A DNA stretch of 40,312 bases from sequence record PP869411.1; one strand, 5' to 3'. Below, piece after piece: positions 24,205-40,312 of the stretch. The notes below the pieces were generated by a model that was not told the DNA's origin, did not search any database, and saw only the letters and a list, made by a program, of their open reading frames with translations. Both the position numbers and the translations under genes were made by a program. The first letter of the stretch is position 1. Each line of letters opens with the position of its first letter. The DNA is from Enterobacter phage vB_EclP_26.

Positions 24205-26886
24205 TTAGGCGAATGCAAAGTCTGAAGACAGGATGTCTTCGATATTCAGTTTACCGCGTGGTGGCAGTGGTGGCAACTTCTCGCGCTGAGACTCATGGAG
24301 CTGGTCCTCAAACTGCTCGTAGAAGTCTTGCAGCACATCGTTGTCACGGTAAGTCTCGACCATCGTCTCACGCACACCCTTGAAGAGTGACTCAGCGTCT
24401 GCCGGGATGGTCCCGAAGCTGTCGTGAATGACCGCGAAGGACATTACGCCATACTTGCGGTGGGTGTGGACTACAGTCTTCCGCAGGTGGCTGCCATCCT
24501 GTGAGTGGACGAAGTTAGGGCTGATACCCGACTCCTGCTTGTGCTTGTCCAGCTCCTTGCTTGACCCTTTGTTGACTGTGGGTTGCAGGTTGAACGTTCC
24601 AAGGAACAGCAGGTTGAGACGTGTGGTATCACGCTTGCGGTATTCCTGCCAGACTGGGAACCCATCGGGTGTGACCCAGTGTACCGGGAGGCAGGGCTTC
24701 AGCACTTCTTTAGTCTTCTTGTCCTTGACTTCAGCAGCCAGCAGTTTCGCTGCGCCCTGTAGCCACTTCATCGCGTCTACCGCAGCAACTACGGTCACAC
24801 TAACCGCATCCCAAATCATCTTAGCCATGAAGCGAGACGCTTGGCTTGGGTCTGTGAACATAGCCCCTTTGCCGTTGTCGATGGCTGGCATCACGGTGTC
24901 CTCGAACACTTGGTCTGCGAACCCATACTCTTTCGACCCGTAGGCCAGAGTCATGACCGAGCGTTTAGTGACCGAGCGCGACATACCGTATTGCAGCCAC
25001 TGACGGGCCAGCTCACGGGTCCCAAGGACCAGACGCTCTGTAATTTCGCCTGTCTTCTTGTCCTCGAAGGTCTTCATCTCGTTGTCGCTACCGTTGACCA
25101 GCAGTTCCTTGAGTTGCTCCTCCACCCGGTCTGACACAATGCGGTAGATGTCTTGGACCTTACCGCTTGGCGTCAGGTTGACCGCATGTCCGCCAACGTG
25201 GTCCCGAAGCATAGCACTGAAGTGTTGAATCCCAGAGCAGGACCCATCGAATGCGATAGGCAGTGAGCAGGAGTAGCTCAGACCGTGGTGCATTACCCCA
25301 GCATACTCGAAGCAGAACGCGAGGAAGCAGAACGGCGAGTCTAACTGGCCCCACCAGTCAATGCTGTCCATCGGACTCTTGGCAGCTGCTAGGATGTTGT
25401 CGTGGTTGTCTTCCACCCACTTGATGCGCTCCTCAAAGGTGACCTTATCCACACCTGCGCAGTTCGCACCGTGCACCTTCAGCCATTTGAAACCGTCAGC
25501 ACCGATAGGCTTGCCAACTGCCAGAGTCAGGAGACCCTTCTGCATGTCGTTTCCTTGCGGGTTGAACATCGGGACCGCATACACTCGACCACGCCAGTCC
25601 ATATTGTACGGGAACCAGATGGCCTTAAACTGTGAGAACTTATTGGCCTGACTCACGATGAAGCTCAATGACAAACGGCGGGACTGTCGGGCCTTCTCTC
25701 GACGGTAGATACCTGCTGCCGCTTTCTTCCACGCTTTCAGTTCCTCCTCAGTCTCCCCTGTGTAATCCTCAGGTTTCATCGGGTCCATCTGCGGGATGTC
25801 TGCGATAGGTGTGTTGTTGAGCTTCTCGACCATGTTCACCACGTCCAAGACCTTCTTGTTCACCTTCCACGGTGTCTGCTGGATGATGTTGACCGCTTCG
25901 TACACCTCCGGCATGTACACGTCTTCATAACGAGCGACCGCAGCCTTTGACCCTAAGCGAATCAATGGGAGTGGTCTGCGACCTTTCGCCCAGTATCCTC
26001 CACCTACCACGCCATTCCACGGCTTAGGCGGGACGACACATGGTTGATACACCGGGGCGATACCTGCCAGTGAGAACCCACGCTGAGCCATCTTCTTGAC
26101 CCAGAAGTCTGACAGGTGGACCATCTCAACGTCTGCCGCAGCGTTGCCTGCACCGTATCGCTTCAGCTCTACCAGCTGTGAGGACTGGATGACCAGCTCC
26201 AGCATCTTGATGCCAACGTGTACCGCTTCAGTCGGACCCCAAGTGCCCCACGCATCAGCCAGCTGCCCCTGCTCAAGCATGGACGCTTCTACTGCCTGCA
26301 TGTAGGCTTTCTTATAGGCCTGACCAGCGCGTTTCTTCAGGTTCTCCGCAATGGTCTTCTTGAAGTGTTCCTGTTCCTGCTCACGGATGCGACCGAAGCG
26401 TATTTCATCTTCAATCGTGCGGCCTATTGCTGAGGCCATTGGCGTAATCGGTACGCCCTCAGGCTTGACCAGCTTCGAGAGGATGACTTTCAGTATGATG
26501 ACCGCAGCCGCCTCAGGTGATACTTTAAGTGAACGGTCTTTAACGGCCTTCTCTTCTGTGCTCAGCATGGTAAACGCCACGCTCGGGCGGGAGGTCGATG
26601 CCTTTCCGTCTGGCCCCTCGTGCCACTCACGAATCGCTTTCGCTATGGTCGGGACCAGCGTTTGCATCAGTGGCTTAGCAACCTGATTGTCTGCCAGTTC
26701 CCCGCGCTCAGTCTGACGCTCAAGGTTCTTAATGAAACGTCGCTCACCTTCAGTGTATGCCTCATGCTCAAGCTGAAGCTGTTTGACTGCGAGGTCCTGA
26801 CCGTAATGGTCAGCCAGTACATTGAACGGCTCAATCGCATTCGATACGTCAGAGAAGTCATGCTTTTCAATCGAGATGACGCTCAT
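24205..26886 (-). CDS. single-subunit DNA-directed RNA polymerase, T7 gp1 homolog
   Basis: 893 aa, highly similar to T7 RNAP across all motifs. The specificity-loop region reads TVNKGSSKELDKHKQESG versus T7 TINTNKDSEIDAHKQESG. The start is taken at an internal ATG (MSVISIEKHDFSD). Confidence 0.98.
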   Translation of the reverse strand: MSVISIEKHDFSDVSNAIEPFNVLADHYGQDLAVKQLQLEHEAYTEGERRFIKNLERQTERGELADNQVAKPLMQTLVPTIAKAIREWHEGPDGKASTSRPSVAFTMLSTEEKAVKDRSLKVSPEAAAVIILKVILSKLVKPEGVPITPMASAIGRTIEDEIRFGRIREQEQEHFKKTIAENLKKRAGQAYKKAYMQAVEASMLEQGQLADAWGTWGPTEAVHVGIKMLELVIQSSQLVELKRYGAGNAAADVEMVHLSDFWVKKMAQRGFSLAGIAPVYQPCVVPPKPWNGVVGGGYWAKGRRPLPLIRLGSKAAVARYEDVYMPEVYEAVNIIQQTPWKVNKKVLDVVNMVEKLNNTPIADIPQMDPMKPEDYTGETEEELKAWKKAAAGIYRREKARQSRRLSLSFIVSQANKFSQFKAIWFPYNMDWRGRVYAVPMFNPQGNDMQKGLLTLAVGKPIGADGFKWLKVHGANCAGVDKVTFEERIKWVEDNHDNILAAAKSPMDSIDWWGQLDSPFCFLAFCFEYAGVMHHGLSYSCSLPIAFDGSCSGIQHFSAMLRDHVGGHAVNLTPSGKVQDIYRIVSDRVEEQLKELLVNGSDNEMKTFEDKKTGEITERLVLGTRELARQWLQYGMSRSVTKRSVMTLAYGSKEYGFADQVFEDTVMPAIDNGKGAMFTDPSQASRFMAKMIWDAVSVTVVAAVDAMKWLQGAAKLLAAEVKDKKTKEVLKPCLPVHWVTPDGFPVWQEYRKRDTTRLNLLFLGTFNLQPTVNKGSSKELDKHKQESGISPNFVHSQDGSHLRKTVVHTHRKYGVMSFAVIHDSFGTIPADAESLFKGVRETMVETYRDNDVLQDFYEQFEDQLHESQREKLPPLPPRGKLNIEDILSSDFAFA

Positions 26887-26963
26887 ACTTAAAGTCCTTA
26901 TAACTGTTGTCTTATCACTAAAGTCTTTCACTTCAGTCCTGACTTATAGTCTTTCGACCTTGA

Positions 26964-26983
26964 GTCCTTTAGTGATAGTTTAG
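26964..26983 (-). promoter_or_regulatory. divergent phage-promoter-like sequence upstream of the RNAP gene
   Basis: CTAAACTATCACTAAAGGAC, followed by an R1-like structured region (GACUCAAGGUC..GACUGAAG). Confidence 0.35.
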
Positions 26984-26989
26984 TCCAAA

Positions 26990-27202
26990 CTACTTGCATA
27001 TCAGCGGGTTAGCGTGCAGATGGCTGAAGTCACCTTTGGTCGTCCAGCGCATAGCTTTCAACTCGGTACATGCCTTCAGTCTGGACTCCAAGATAGCAGC
27101 CATCTCGTTCAGTGCCACCTTGTCTCCGGTCTTATAGGCCAGCATAAAGCGGGACATAATGTTGTTAAAGTGGTCTTGCTTAGCGCGTTGTGATTTAGTC
27201 AT
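26990..27202 (-). CDS. hypothetical early protein
   Basis: 70-aa ORF whose start overlaps the upstream gene by 8 nt. Confidence 0.45.
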   Translation of the reverse strand: MTKSQRAKQDHFNNIMSRFMLAYKTGDKVALNEMAAILESRLKACTELKAMRWTTKGDFSHLHANPLICK

Positions 27203-27395
27203 TACAGTTTGCTCCTAAGGTTGCGATATCAAAGACGTTTGCGAGGTTGCGCATAAAGCGTCCGTTTGGTTGTCTTACAGTCCAGCGTCCCAGTGATACA
27301 TACTGGAAGCGGTAGACTTTACGTGCCTTCACGATGTCTTTCGTGATGACTGCGAGTATTAACCCGTAGCCGATGACCAGAAGTAGCCAGCCCAT
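27195..27395 (-). CDS. hypothetical early membrane protein
   Basis: 66 aa with an N-terminal transmembrane helix (WLLLVIGYGLILAVI); its start overlaps the upstream stop (TAACTATG). Confidence 0.45.
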   Translation of the reverse strand: MGWLLLVIGYGLILAVITKDIVKARKVYRFQYVSLGRWTVRQPNGRFMRNLANVFDIATLGANCND

Positions 27396-27397
27396 AG

Positions 27398-27559
27398 TTA
27401 CCCCGCCAGTCCGCAGAGAATCAGGAGACCGCGCACGATGCCTACAGGTGACACAATGATGTCGACTGCTAGCCAGCCCCAGTGACCAGCGTTGCCATCA
27501 GTCGCTACAGCAGTGACCCAAAGTGCGATGATTACGATGTAGGTTAACAGTGCTTTCAT
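27398..27559 (-). CDS. hypothetical small membrane protein
   Basis: 53 aa (MKALLTYIVIIALWVTAVATDGNAGHWGWLAVDIIVSPVGIVRGLLILCGLAG) with RBS AGGAG; not in the ORF track (<60 aa). Confidence 0.4.
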   Translation of the reverse strand: MKALLTYIVIIALWVTAVATDGNAGHWGWLAVDIIVSPVGIVRGLLILCGLAG

Positions 27560-27625
27560 GGTAATGCTCCTATATGTTGTGAGTAATAATCTTTGAGACC
27601 ACTATATGTAGTGGCCTCTCGCCTA

Positions 27626-28360
27626 TCACTCGGCTATTGCATTCAGCTTGCCTTGCATCTCGTCTTGATGGTCTGCCTGAGTCCAAGACACCGGGTCCGT
27701 GATTATTAAGCGCCCGTTATTGTCTACCATCACGTTAGCGCGATGAGTGTCGAATGAGGCCAGACCGTAGAAGAACGTGTGAATCTTACGTGCAGTCTTA
27801 GCCAGCTCCTTGATGTACTGAGTCTCGACGTGTGCGAACTCAGCTCGCGCCTCGTTGCCAAGCCACCAAGTCAGTGCAGCGTCTGGCATCTCGCAATGGT
27901 CTATCACTGAGTTGACTACGCGCCACGACACGTTTAAGACTCGCTGCTCGTAGGTCTCACCATCCCGGCAGTAGTCACCGCCGATGTCATTCAGTGAGCG
28001 GTACTTATCCATAGCCACCATGTAGGCCCTGCTGAAGCGCTTGACCAGATGTATGACCGGAAGTCCTGCCATGCCCTCATTCTCTCGGCAGAAGGCCGCA
28101 TACGCAGCGCCTGAGTCATCCTTCTTAAAGCCCACCTTGATAGCGTAGCCCGGCAGGTCCTCATGTTCAAAGGCAGCGGCGAAATGTCCTAAGCCTAACA
28201 GCTTGTAACCGTGCTCTTTAGCCAGTATCTCAAAAGCTCCCCAGCGTGGCTGACCTGCTATCCCGGCGCTTGAGTCCTCAATCTTATAGCACTCCTCGTA
28301 GATGATAGCGTGAAGCTGAGACATCAGGTTATTCATGATTACTTTATCGTGTGCATTCAT
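27626..28360 (-). CDS. serine/threonine protein kinase, T7 gp0.7 kinase-domain homolog (short form)
   Basis: 244 aa; G.GHFAAA, IKVGFKKDDSGAAYAAFCR, ASFD.H and ITDPVS match the T7 gp0.7 N-terminal kinase domain. The C-terminal host-shutoff region of T7 (359 aa) is absent. Confidence 0.85.
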   Translation of the reverse strand: MNAHDKVIMNNLMSQLHAIIYEECYKIEDSSAGIAGQPRWGAFEILAKEHGYKLLGLGHFAAAFEHEDLPGYAIKVGFKKDDSGAAYAAFCRENEGMAGLPVIHLVKRFSRAYMVAMDKYRSLNDIGGDYCRDGETYEQRVLNVSWRVVNSVIDHCEMPDAALTWWLGNEARAEFAHVETQYIKELAKTARKIHTFFYGLASFDTHRANVMVDNNGRLIITDPVSWTQADHQDEMQGKLNAIAE

Positions 28361-28381
28361 CGTGTTGTTTCCTTCTTGTGG

Positions 28382-28411
28382 TTAAGTGACAATCAGTCAG
28401 GCCCCTCAGTC
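28382..28411 (-). promoter_or_regulatory. conserved early-region box, class II copy (R0.5-like position, upstream of kinase)
   Basis: The 26-nt motif GACUGARGGSSCUGACUGAUWGUCACU is shared with 29221..29249. Confidence 0.45.
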
Positions 28412-28428
28412 AAAGGACCTGTAGTCTA

Positions 28429-28749
28429 TCACTCTGAGACCTGCTCTAATACCTTCAGACGCTGTGCTAATACCCACGCACCACCCTGAGATTCTGGCCT
28501 GTCATAGGTCGTTATATCCTCCACCTCGACCTTAAACCATGCCCGACGCTCCCCAGACTTCAGGTCCAGCTTAAGATGTGGAGCGTTCTGCTCAAAGGTG
28601 CAATGCCAGCCCGGACGATATGCAAACCCTTTGGTCGGATGACTCTCTGCCTCGTACCATTCCCCGACCTCAATGACCGCCTTACGGTTGATGAACAGTG
28701 CTCCCAGTGTTCCATCCTTGCGGATTCTGAAGATTTTATATGCAATCAT
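28429..28749 (-). CDS. hypothetical early protein between SAM lyase and kinase
   Basis: 106 aa starting MIAYKIFRIRKDG, with RBS GGGAGGTGGTG 2 nt after the SAM lyase stop; no recognisable T7 counterpart. Confidence 0.6.
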   Translation of the reverse strand: MIAYKIFRIRKDGTLGALFINRKAVIEVGEWYEAESHPTKGFAYRPGWHCTFEQNAPHLKLDLKSGERRAWFKVEVEDITTYDRPESQGGAWVLAQRLKVLEQVSE

Positions 28750-28750
28750 C

Positions 28751-29203
28751 TTACACCACCTCCCAGAATCGACCTTCAGCGTCTTTCGTGAAGCATTCGC
28801 CCTTAGGCGCATCGACCTGCTGGAAAGACCCATTCAGACGTGTGACCCTGTAGCCATCCAGACCTTTGCAGAACATCAGGCCAGCCGTGTGAGTCTGTGA
28901 CTTGTAGACCATCACGCAGTCTTGCTCAAAGTCATTACAGGCCAGCCGCGCAACGTTGATAGCCTGAGCTTTTGACTCACAGCGCACACGATAGGTTCTC
29001 TCTTCAGTGGCGACCTTCTGTCCCTCCTCGCGGTAGCATCCAATCAGCCCGGTGCATTCAAGCACACCGTAGTATTCCGGTTCAGCTTGGAGTAGCGCCT
29101 TAAGGTCTAACTGACGGGCCATGTTAGCCATATCTGACAGGTTAGCACGTGCAGCAGAGACCAGAACATAGAAGACGTTTGCAGGTTCGTTAGTGTAAAT
29201 CAT
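28751..29203 (-). CDS. S-adenosylmethionine lyase (T3 gene 0.3-type SAMase), anti-restriction
   Basis: 150 aa, MIYTNEPANVFYVLVSAARANL..., strongly resembling the T3 SAMase N-terminus as recalled. It is the first early gene, with RBS AAGGA. Confidence 0.8.
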   Translation of the reverse strand: MIYTNEPANVFYVLVSAARANLSDMANMARQLDLKALLQAEPEYYGVLECTGLIGCYREEGQKVATEERTYRVRCESKAQAINVARLACNDFEQDCVMVYKSQTHTAGLMFCKGLDGYRVTRLNGSFQQVDAPKGECFTKDAEGRFWEVV

Positions 29204-29220
29204 GATGTGTATCCTTTAAG

Positions 29221-29249
29221 TTAGTGACTATCAGTCAGGGCCTTCAGTC
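29221..29249 (-). promoter_or_regulatory. conserved early-region box, class II copy (R0.3-like position, upstream of SAM lyase)
   Basis: Contains the palindrome TGACTGATAGTCA; a possible stem GACUA..CAGGG / CCCUG..UAGUC surrounds a large internal structure. Confidence 0.45.
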
Positions 29250-29410
29250 GCTCAAGTCAAGCCCGTCTCGCGGTAGACTCAAAGACCCTGTAGTTAGTCG
29301 CTATCGGCGCACATTAAGAGTGTTATCCATATTGTTAAAGAACATTCGCTTGGCTGTCGTCGCCTCGCTATCCCGTTTCAGTGTTGGGCCTCACCGTTTT
29401 GATGTGGTAC

Positions 29411-29440
29411 ATACTACTTTAAGTCGGTACATCTTGTCAA
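29411..29440 (-). promoter_or_regulatory. host sigma70 early promoter (A2/A3-like)
   Basis: TTGACA, an 18-nt spacer, then TAGTAT on the minus strand. Confidence 0.5.
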
Positions 29441-29551
29441 CTACTTTCTGTCGGTTGCCTGTTTTTCGTATGTCTTACAGGCTGACTACTCAACCGGACC
29501 GACCCGGCGTCTTCACTATCCGGTGTTTGCCGTGTCGTGTTGACGGAAGCT

Positions 29552-39300: not shown

Positions 39301-40194
39301 GGCCTTCTCTTGGTCTAACTTCTGGTTCTCCAGCGCTAGGTTGATGAGTTCGGTCAGGTTCTGTGGCGAGCCACCAGTGATGACTCCGTAATACTGAGGC
39401 ATGACTCCGGCCTGACGAATTTGGTCTAACTCATCGCGGGACCACTTGTGGTTATTCCAACGGGTAGGGTTAAACACATCGCCAATGACGTCTAGTGAGT
39501 CCTCGGTCTGACCAGCTCGGATAGCCACGCCGACCATTGAGTTCTTCACCTCTGCTTCAGCTGCACCGCCGAACCCGAACCAAGTAGAGCGGTCTGCTCG
39601 TTGGTCCAATGTCTCACCAGTGGACTTATAGAACTGCTCGCCCATTGACTCAACCGGAGCAGCAGGTGCCTGACCTTCCACATTCAGACCAGTAACACCC
39701 GGAAGGTCCTGACCCAAGGAGACCTTAGGCTTGGCCTTCAGGCCCTCGGTCAGTGCGTCAAAAACGTTAGCGCTTACTGGTGGAGTCTTTGGGGAGATAC
39801 CGTTGAGTGCGCGAGACACTCCCTGCTGGTAGACTTCTGGGTTATAACGTGAGCCAGTCTCATGGAAGCCTATAGCTTCAGCCAGAGATGCCAGAATGTC
39901 AGGGTCCTGCAAGTCGATACTTTGGGTCGCCGGGATGCCAGTAGCCGCTACGATTGAATCGATGTAGGCCTGTGTGTCATTCTCGTTAGGAGGAGCCCAG
40001 CGTCCGATAATCTTCTCGATTGAGTCGTAACCTTGGCGACCGTAGCTCATCAGGTTCTTAGCCAGAGCGCGGACACCAGAGTCAGGAGTGTCAAACGTTA
40101 CGAAGGACCCATCGTCCCCTGTGGCCCCTTCCCATTGGTCCTTAGACTTACGGATGTTCCCGATGTTGTTGTTGCGAATACCACGAGTCGCCAT
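36304..40194 (-). CDS. internal virion protein D, T7 gp16 homolog with divergent N-terminal domain
   Basis: 1296 aa. Colinear with T7 gp16 from about residue 200 onward (RLEARETARN, VRSPTGMQSGASGK, AKNAYMG, NTTNYLLDA, MDLWR, ALSRSS). The first ~130 aa lack the T7 SLT motif. The ATG follows the gp15 stop across the window junction (GGAGTAACATAATG). Confidence 0.93.
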   Translation of the reverse strand: MATRGIRNNNIGNIRKSKDQWEGATGDDGSFVTFDTPDSGVRALAKNLMSYGRQGYDSIEKIIGRWAPPNENDTQAYIDSIVAATGIPATQSIDLQDPDILASLAEAIGFHETGSRYNPEVYQQGVSRALNGISPKTPPVSANVFDALTEGLKAKPKVSLGQDLPGVTGLNVEGQAPAAPVESMGEQFYKSTGETLDQRADRSTWFGFGGAAEAEVKNSMVGVAIRAGQTEDSLDVIGDVFNPTRWNNHKWSRDELDQIRQAGVMPQYYGVITGGSPQNLTELINLALENQKLDQEKAKAGTGAQLAAGVIGAGVDPLTYVPVAGQVGKGGKLVNKMFTVAAQSGALAGASEIARTSVAGGDAHVAEAIMGGALFGGGMTAIADGLGRVLGKSTPNEFAGPATRLEARETARNTDGQDLSRIPLREGEEVFEHNGVRFADVPNEPGSVRLEDGSILIGENPLNPKTRQVFDNVIEPERAAAGVNLGGMTEIGLKLLRSQNPEIRGLASDLVRSPTGMQSGASGKIGTTASDVFERLRAVDHRFYNDIDDAVTEALKDPYFQTSFWRDNGAFRQDIYQRVSLAIEDGTGDLKSQLTPGELKVYDLLKNQFDAKREMMENPAMFGRADAVSIFPGSRFKGTYVPHVYSNQMKELYIRELGSNEALQEAIKKSWLTSYASRPEVKKRVDEALLEADPTLTPEGLAAAVEKYANDKAYGISHTDQFSRSSVMEENIQGLVGLENNSFLEARNLFDSDMSIVLPNGETFSVNNLREWDMDKIVPAYNRRVNGDISIMAGTGKTTKEMKDAVETLMNKAGDDGQLKGEVSTLRDTLKILTGRARRDGADDAAFSTVMRTMTDLSFFAKNAYMGVQNLTEIGGMLARGNVRAMLHGIPMFRDLAFRNKKVGASEIKDLHNIVFGKELDDSIRPSKQDVIDRLRAYSDLSKTSATALGSAKYYTGELAARSPLTKVLNSTTNYLLDAGRQGFLSDVVEHSLTGSKRRFDDRWLKTAGISPEQWKGIKSLIRESVTRGPDGKMTIKDKKAFSQDPRAMDLWRMGDTIADETLLRPHKLSNMDAKAYGPLAKTVLQFKNFVIKSINGRTMRSYYNATKNNRAIDQALAVTMSMGLAGLYYMAQAHVKAYAMQDGRDRDYLKQALDPTMIGYAALSRSSHLGGPLGVANILGGIAGYQDAQMLRSSILPRSPTEKPDRAITFGAAKSDPVMGVVSNFLQQVPAFGYAANVGASAYNLAGYLKADTRVDERDYMTGMYNTFRELVPNDPITQKLLLGTFEEQGIHIKD

Positions 40195-40312
40195 TATGTT
40201 ACTCCTTACCGATTAAGGTGTTTGCGATACCCTCCAGTGAGACGTCTTTGTACATACCGCCCCGCTCTTGGACTCTCGCTTCTGCTGCATTGCGTCGTTT
40301 ATCACCAGCCGC

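Follow-up and report, generated by a model that had tools for sequence, protein, structure and literature searches.

Three small genes upstream of the RNA polymerase gene of Enterobacter phage vB_EclP_26 match the early gp0.36-gp0.37-gp0.38 module of Kayfunavirus

The early (class I) genes 0.3-0.7 of bacteriophage T7 are dispensable in the laboratory (PMC11482910). Their products include small inhibitors of FtsZ (gp0.4) and MreB (gp0.6) (bioRxiv 10.64898/2026.09.14.751387), as well as gp0.5, an uncharacterised putative membrane protein that is under selection (PMC12798971). Phage K1F carries three small genes, 0.36, 0.37 and 0.38, directly before a promoter and gene 1, which encodes the RNA polymerase. 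These genes and their orthologues in EcoDS1, Dev2 and SH4 are annotated as hypothetical proteins, and the orthologues in Citrobacter phages SH3/SH4/SH5 were listed without a predicted function (PMC4925675). Here we describe a cluster of three small open reading frames (ORFs) in Enterobacter phage vB_EclP_26, found in a stretch of 40,312 nucleotides (nt) that was analysed as a whole (sequence record PP869411.1; hereafter the window). The cluster lies at positions 26990-27559, between the genes for a protein kinase and the RNA polymerase. T7 and T3 have no annotated genes between 0.7 and 1, as an initial annotation of this DNA had pointed out, with the implication that the cluster was new. Sequence and position instead identify it as the standard class I (early) accessory module gp0.36-gp0.37-gp0.38 of Kayfunavirus, and ORF2 has a homologue in T3 gene 0.6. 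We have little doubt about the identity and the anatomy of the module.

The three gene families, their order and their position directly before the promoter and gene 1 are the same as in K1F. In EcoDS1 the orthologues are an unnamed ORF, 'gp0.6' and gp0.38, in Dev2 they are gp0.6 and gp0.38, and in SH4 they are ORF4-6. The ORFs should be named after K1F gp0.36, gp0.37 and gp0.38, and for ORF2 the link to T3 gp0.6 should be noted as well. The module and its boundaries, in the order of the coding strand and with lengths in amino acids (aa), are as follows.

27582-27630, minus strand: hairpin homologous to the RNase III site R0.5; it bounds the module on the 5' side, and its first letters are the Glu-stop GAGTGA that ends the kinase gene
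27567-27571, minus strand: Shine-Dalgarno (SD) sequence AGGAG of ORF1, read from the sequence, 7 nt before the ATG
27398-27559, minus strand: ORF1, 53 aa, K1F gp0.36 family, PHROG 7319
27195-27395, minus strand: ORF2, 66 aa, K1F gp0.37 / EcoDS1 'gp0.6' / T3 gene 0.6 family, PHROG 2385
27212-27216, minus strand: SD sequence AGGAG of ORF3, read from the sequence, inside the 3' end of ORF2
26990-27202, minus strand: ORF3, 70 aa, short Dev2-type variant of gp0.38
26962-26984, minus strand: site resembling a phage RNA polymerase promoter (ACTAAACTATCACTAAAGGACTC), which separates ORF3 from gene 1 and bounds the module on the 3' side

ORF1 matched PHROG 7319 over the full length of the profile (E=8.9e-18, residues 1-51 on profile positions 3-53 of 54) and is 70% identical to K1F gp0.36. 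It also has the two hydrophobic segments of this family and lies between an R0.5-like hairpin and the gp0.37 gene. ORF2, which is 76% identical to K1F gp0.37, gave a full-length match to PHROG 2385 (E=9e-27, residues 1-63) and carries both the N-terminal transmembrane (TM) segment and the tail motif RWTVRQPNGRF of that family. ORF3 is 91% identical to Dev2 gp0.38 and contains the gp0.38-family peptide TT(K/H)GDFSHLHANPLICK, whose codons immediately precede the gene 1 promoter; PHROG 7066 matched its residues 34-70 only. Each of the gene families had been catalogued before and only this combination is new. In a megablast search of the phage collection no record covered at least 80% of the 801-nt stretch that holds the module. 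This phage differs from its K1F-like relatives in combining an ORF1-type gene with a short Dev2-type ORF3, in having no 29-aa mini-ORF, and in the GANCND end of ORF2.

The ORFs of 53, 66 and 70 aa were confirmed at exactly the positions first reported, all on the minus strand. Of the two overlaps that had been described between them, the second is a true overlap of 8 nt (AATGACTAA) and the first turned out to be a gap of 2 nt (TAA-CT-ATG). In most relatives the ORF2 type ends in ...GSKL* with a TAATG overlap onto the gp0.38 type. The 8-nt overlap arises from a G run that is shorter by 1 nt (GGGAGC to GGAGC), a deletion that turns the ORF2 C-terminus from GSKL into GANCND in this genome. ORF1 and ORF3 each have an SD sequence, kept in relatives as (T)AGGAG and as GGGAG/GGAG, respectively; ORF2 has none of its own, and its ATG stands 2 nt past the ORF1 stop. 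The initial annotation had held that a lack of conservation in relatives would speak for spurious ORFs, and homologues were found by tblastn in 50 (ORF1), 360 (ORF2) and 206 (ORF3) phage records. We compared 28 loci, taken from phage records and IMG/VR contigs, and estimated selection as the ratio of non-synonymous to synonymous changes (dN/dS) by the Nei-Gojobori method, pooled over the homologous loci. This ratio was 0.25 for ORF1 (n=8), 0.24 for ORF2 (n=28) and 0.32 for ORF3 (n=27). The three ORFs are real genes under purifying selection.

The layout of the 28 loci is constant: the hairpin, one or more optional small hydrophobic genes, the gp0.37 type, an optional insert, the gp0.38 type, the phage promoter and gene 1. 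The ORF2 type is universal among them and the ORF1 type is present in 8, with nothing between the hairpin and ORF2 in three. An insert of 400-600 nt separates the gp0.37 and gp0.38 types in loci L009, L012, L019 and L024 and in the phage matches H22, H23 and H27, and it is annotated as endonuclease VII in CHRF_10037 and IMM-002. The inserts that relatives carry here mark the gp0.37/gp0.38 junction as a likely insertion hot spot.

Two of the three ORFs had been credited with TM helices, and hydropathy (Kyte-Doolittle, 15-residue window) bears this out for ORF1 and ORF2. ORF1 has two hydrophobic segments, with peaks of 2.5 and 2.3. Its invariant residues are W14, T16, A17, D21, W29, D33, I34, P38, G40, V42, R43, G44, L46 and G50, and these hold also in distant homologues from Melnykvirinae, whose early regions carry relatives of ORF1 (phiR8-01 g005, Dev-CD-23823 gp7). 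The invariant set includes charged D and R residues, and a SPVG(V/I)VRG motif lies inside the second hydrophobic segment; together these features argue for a specific interaction of ORF1 rather than a role as a mere anchor. No relatives were found when 185,579 bacterial and archaeal genomes were scanned with the ORF1 alignment. T7 gp0.5 is, like ORF1, a hydrophobic protein of about 50 aa, and the only stretch common to the two is a short (I/V)G(I/V)(I/V)(K/R)G(A/L)L, which BLASTP returned as a weak match over 8 residues (E=0.15).

Most relatives also hold a hydrophobic mini-ORF of 29 aa (MNIGYWVCLSPVIFLIAWGLLDAIKRGSL and variants), for example at 1879-1968 of locus L001 and at 1563-1652 of locus L004, with 17 further loci. 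Its stop codon overlaps the ATG of ORF2 (TAATG or ATGA), and loci L021 and L030 contain both the mini-ORF and an ORF1-type gene. It is missing from the window, and it is unannotated in the records of Dev2, Pisces and EcoDS1. The mini-ORF is probably genuine and makes a fourth gene of the module.

ORF2 has one TM segment, with a hydropathy peak of 2.7 at the N-terminus. The N-terminus itself is uncharged, and the TM segment is followed by TKDIVKARKVYR, which carries a net charge of +4. The block GRWTVRQPNGRFMRNLAN is invariant or nearly so as protein and shows many synonymous codon changes: one Arg is encoded by four codons (CGC/AGG/CGT/AGA), Pro by three and one Leu by four. The invariant tail spans phages of Escherichia, Salmonella, Klebsiella, Enterobacter, Cronobacter, Citrobacter and Pectobacterium. 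An AlphaFold2 (AF2) model of ORF2 consists of a helix (2-34), a loop (35-44) and a second helix (45-64), with a predicted local distance difference test score (pLDDT) of 65. An exhaustive hidden Markov model (HMM) search of 1.84 billion representative proteins with the ORF2 profile returned only 12 clusters, all of short, phage-like proteins and none fused to a known domain, which points to a small, phage-restricted family. One relative, P0098 (66 aa), is a chimera in which the invariant tail (GRWTVRQPNGRF...LGSKL) follows an unrelated, non-hydrophobic N-terminus; it has the precomputed Pfam tag PF26807. Apparently the ORF2 tail can be carried on a non-membrane scaffold.

Outside the K1F group, ORF2 has homologues in T3 gene 0.6 (65 aa; BLASTP E=1e-7) and in the corresponding gene of KP32 (Przondovirus; E=8e-12). 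Both share with ORF2 the N-terminal TM segment, the basic juxtamembrane stretch and the motif R(W/F)TVR-x-(P/R)NGRF. No identity extends beyond the tail, where it reaches only about 40-50%, and in T3 and KP32 the 0.6-type gene lies upstream of the kinase, whereas in this phage it lies downstream. We also considered T7 gp0.6A, the MreB inhibitor, as a homologue of ORF2 and rejected it: no alignment was obtained at E<=100, and gp0.6A has no TM segment. The statement that the cluster shows no similarity to T7 proteins thus stands, with gp0.5 giving only the weak match to ORF1 described above.

ORF3 has no hydrophobic segment (hydropathy maximum 0.6). In the AF2 model it forms a helical hairpin (residues 3-25 and 28-55) with a mean pLDDT of 79.7 and a C-terminal tail at 50-60, so that ORF3 is predicted to be a soluble helical hairpin with a disordered tail. 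A Foldseek search of the PDB and BFVD with this model gave only matches at E>1, to generic helical hairpins. When ORF3 was aligned to the K1F-type gp0.38 with hhalign, the probability of homology was 98.6% with the tail and fell to 0.2% (E=0.32) once the tail was trimmed, so homology of the ORF3 body to the K1F gp0.38 body (RQQQERDRVLQARLRAEGHK...GKLLVSGW) was not upheld. The last 14 residues of ORF3, GDFSHLHANPLICK, are invariant in both body types, which suggests that the tail is a docking motif, a conserved linear peptide on an exchangeable scaffold. The idea that ORF3/gp0.38 is the detached C-terminal shut-off domain of T7/T3 gp0.7 was rejected, with a best BLASTP E of about 1 and gp0.38 HMM scores of 2.5 bits against the T7 gp0.7 sequence and 0.7 bits against that of T3.

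The position of the module becomes clearer when the early region is considered as a whole. In coding-strand order it runs from the S-adenosylmethionine (SAM) lyase gene through the gene for a PHROG 12224 protein, the kinase gene and ORF1-ORF3 to gene 1. The features that surround the module are listed here.

28751-29203, minus strand: T3-type SAM lyase (anti-restriction), Pfam PF23780 at E=7e-39
28429-28833 as called (134 aa), minus strand: PHROG 12224 protein, matching PHROG 12224 on residues 28-132
28375-28434, minus strand: second R0.5-like hairpin, just upstream of the kinase gene, with the same GAGTGATAGAC...GATTGTCACTT element
27626-28360, minus strand: 0.7-type protein kinase, 244 aa, PHROG 15752 at E=9.6e-109, the upstream neighbour of the module
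24205-26886, minus strand: gene 1, RNA polymerase, the downstream neighbour of ORF3

The hairpin at 27582-27630 has a folding energy of -20.5 kcal/mol (z=-4.27), and none of 200 shuffled sequences was as stable. It aligns with R0.5 of T7, which lies at 1428-1487 in the interval that separates gene 0.4 from gene 0.5, and with the R0.5 annotated in T3. In an alifold consensus of 23 sequences the hairpin has 13 pairs, and compensatory double changes occur in 3 of these. By sequence and structure it is homologous to T7/T3 R0.5, and it is a putative RNase III site; an Rfam scan of 26500-29500 gave no match. T7 genes 0.5 and 0.6A/B, also class I, occupy the same slot behind the same hairpin as ORF1-ORF3, and T3 gene 0.6 directly follows R0.5. 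The place of the module directly behind an R0.5-homologous hairpin therefore makes the ORF1-ORF3 block the positional counterpart of the T7 0.5-0.6 and T3 0.6 blocks. It is then the kinase cassette, and not the module, that stands in an unusual place, and the empty gap between 0.7 and 1 in T7 and T3 reflects the order of the modules, not new genes.

Both hairpins (28375-28434 and 27572-27631) start with the Glu-stop GAGTGA of the preceding gene. With such a hairpin on either side, the kinase gene looks like a cassette with a recombination boundary. The encoded protein consists of the kinase domain only, without the C-terminal host shut-off region of gp0.7 (359 aa in T7, 369 aa in T3), and K1F and EcoDS1 have no kinase. 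Upstream of it, the called 134-aa ORF at 28429-28833 (minus strand) overlaps the 3' end of the SAM lyase gene. The Pisces homologue has a coding sequence of 106 aa and the PHROG 12224 match covers only residues 28-132, which indicate a real gene start about 27 codons later. Gene 1 has its true start at the ATG at 26886 and does not begin with the GTG at 26931: tblastn alignments of gene 1 to relatives begin at MSVISIEK, a start that SH4 ORF7 shares.

The site between ORF3 and gene 1 has a promoter-like core, CTATCACTAAAGGAC, at 26964-26978, and such sites occur 12 times on the minus strand of the window against 0.74 expected. EcoDS1 has a 'phi' promoter annotated at the same position, and the site is kept before gene 1 in all Kayfunavirus relatives; in T7, unlike in this phage, no phage promoter is annotated directly upstream of the RNA polymerase gene. 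In a scan for sigma-70 promoters and terminators, no terminator came up and the promoter matches were all weak (9/12). We also considered an R1-like RNase III hairpin in the interval from the promoter to gene 1 and rejected it, the fold not being significant (z=-1.5). A 10-bp inverted repeat, ATCACTAAAG/CTTTAGTGAT, is found only in the Dev2-like subgroup.

The window begins and ends with the same 127 nt (1-127 = 40186-40312), which means that it is circularly closed and complete: the window is one permuted, reverse-complemented genome of about 40,185 bp from a circularly closed assembly. The coding strand of the whole genome is the minus strand. The phage belongs to Kayfunavirus (K1F-like Studiervirinae), and the closest matches over the whole region come from Kayfunavirus phages of Shigella, Salmonella, Enterobacter and Cronobacter, at about 85% identity.

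How might the module be expressed, and what might it do? The best overall explanation, to which we give a little better than an even chance, is an early accessory module that is expressed in a coupled manner and conditions the host. The expression scheme, comprising an early transcript, an RNase III cut and translational coupling, seems to us fairly probable. Host RNA polymerase would transcribe the module within the early polycistronic RNA, which RNase III would cut at the hairpin at 27582-27630. ORF1 would be translated from its own SD sequence, ORF2 by re-initiation 2 nt past the ORF1 stop, and ORF3 from the SD sequence inside ORF2. ORF1 would then insert into the inner membrane as a two-segment hairpin. 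ORF2 would be anchored in an N-out, C-in orientation, because the stretch behind the TM segment has a net charge of +4 and the positive-inside rule places such a stretch in the cytoplasm. Its invariant basic peptide of about 30 residues (RWTVRQPNGRF...) would thus lie in the cytoplasm at the membrane surface, and soluble ORF3 may present its invariant, disordered GDFSHLHANPLICK on the exchangeable helical scaffold. The three proteins could be dispensable host-conditioning effectors, each binding a target conserved across Enterobacterales, with the targets of ORF1 and ORF2 at the inner membrane.

Enterobacteria themselves use proteins of comparable build. MgrB, SafA and AcrZ are small bitopic or hairpin regulators of the inner membrane, shorter than 70 aa and with one or two TM segments, and they bind a larger membrane protein through a short, conserved, soluble peptide. 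ORF1 and ORF2 share this design and differ in being phage-encoded and made only during infection. The likeness is one of design alone. By analogy with these proteins and with the T7 class I genes we suggest a membrane-located host-modulating function tentatively, at less than even odds. Several observations weigh against the proposal of a coupled, host-conditioning module. Scans of the three ORFs and of K1F/EcoDS1 gp0.38 against Pfam, NCBIfam and PADLOC returned no significant family. A sequence search of the PDB with the ORFs gave nothing at E<=1 except one chance match, and in the literature on gp0.36, gp0.37, gp0.38, T3 gp0.6 and T7 superinfection exclusion no functional study was found. 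The likeness to T7 0.5 and 0.6A/B is positional only, with sequence similarity absent or insignificant, and the MreB-inhibiting activity of T7 gp0.6 is not transferable to the module. The topology of ORF2 comes only from the positive-inside rule, and the confidence of its model is low (pLDDT 65). Finally, an obligatory complex of the three proteins is unlikely, since ORF1 occurs in only about 8 of the 28 loci and three loci have nothing before ORF2.

Other explanations of the cluster can be set against this one. That the ORFs are spurious and non-coding might be argued from their short length and from the absence of a functional annotation anywhere. This is effectively refuted by dN/dS values well below 1 and by dozens of diverged genomes that preserve the frames, the SD sequences and the start/stop coupling. 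A subtler variant traces the conservation of the ORF3 3' end, or of all of ORF3, to an element in the DNA or RNA that gene 1 needs for its expression, and not to a functional protein. The tail does abut the conserved promoter and leader of gene 1, several of its codons are invariant at the nucleotide level, and the body upstream is swapped for unrelated sequence in different phages. However, over the last 14 codons the proportion of synonymous differences (pS) is 0.27 and that of non-synonymous differences (pN) only 0.019, with a dN/dS of 0.057. Synonymous sites thus vary and replacements are almost absent, which argues that selection constrains the peptide itself and does not stop at the neighbouring promoter DNA. 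Compared with its Dev2 orthologue, the short-type body too shows strong purifying selection (pS 0.49, pN 0.056), and the 3' end yielded no sigma-70-like site. We consider a nucleic acid element very improbable as the explanation.

If the genes act as proteins, at least one of them might neutralise a host defence early in infection, for example a membrane-associated effector of abortive infection or exclusion. The location in the early region next to the kinase and an anti-restriction SAM lyase is in keeping with this. So is the occurrence of ORF1 and of the ORF3 body, patchy and mosaic as accessory counter-defence loci typically are. In contrast, ORF2 and the ORF3 tail are nearly universal and invariant across phages of many host genera, a pattern more in line with a conserved housekeeping target than with a defence system that varies from strain to strain. 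PADLOC gave no defence-model match for any of the ORFs and we found no literature support, so that anti-defence seems unlikely. Early membrane proteins could also alter the inner membrane or the DNA-entry route and so exclude later phages, in the way that T4 Imm and Sp block injection by later-arriving phages. Infection would begin with the synthesis of as many as three tiny membrane proteins (ORF1, ORF2 and, in relatives, the 29-aa mini-ORF), and the family is phage-restricted, given the 12 ORF2 clusters among 1.84 billion proteins and the lack of an ORF1 relative in 185,579 genomes. We found no similarity to known superinfection exclusion proteins, however, and the predicted cytoplasmic tail of ORF2 fits poorly with a block of DNA transit through the periplasm; superinfection exclusion therefore appears still less probable, and we regard it as quite unlikely. 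A more speculative possibility, to which we attach a low probability, is that ORF1, the 29-aa peptide, ORF2 and possibly the gp0.38 tail form or target one inner-membrane complex with a function not assigned to any gene. This could be the long-known but unmapped superinfection exclusion of T7/T3, or the silencing of a membrane sensor of phage DNA entry; were it true, the invariant ORF2 tail would be the effector peptide.

Nothing in the evidence points to a new kind of system. In practice the analysis corrects the annotation and tidies the map of the early region, with the kinase as a candidate cassette between two R0.5-type hairpins. If this cassette boundary is real, it would account for the fact that relatives have the kinase, lack it or carry it in another place. 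ORF2 and the gp0.38 tail are among the most strictly conserved early-region peptides in several genera of Studiervirinae, which makes both of them reasonable and cheap targets for screening. Should a host target be found, it would add to the short list of class I proteins in the T7 group that comprises Ocr, gp0.4 with FtsZ, gp0.6 with MreB, and gp0.7.

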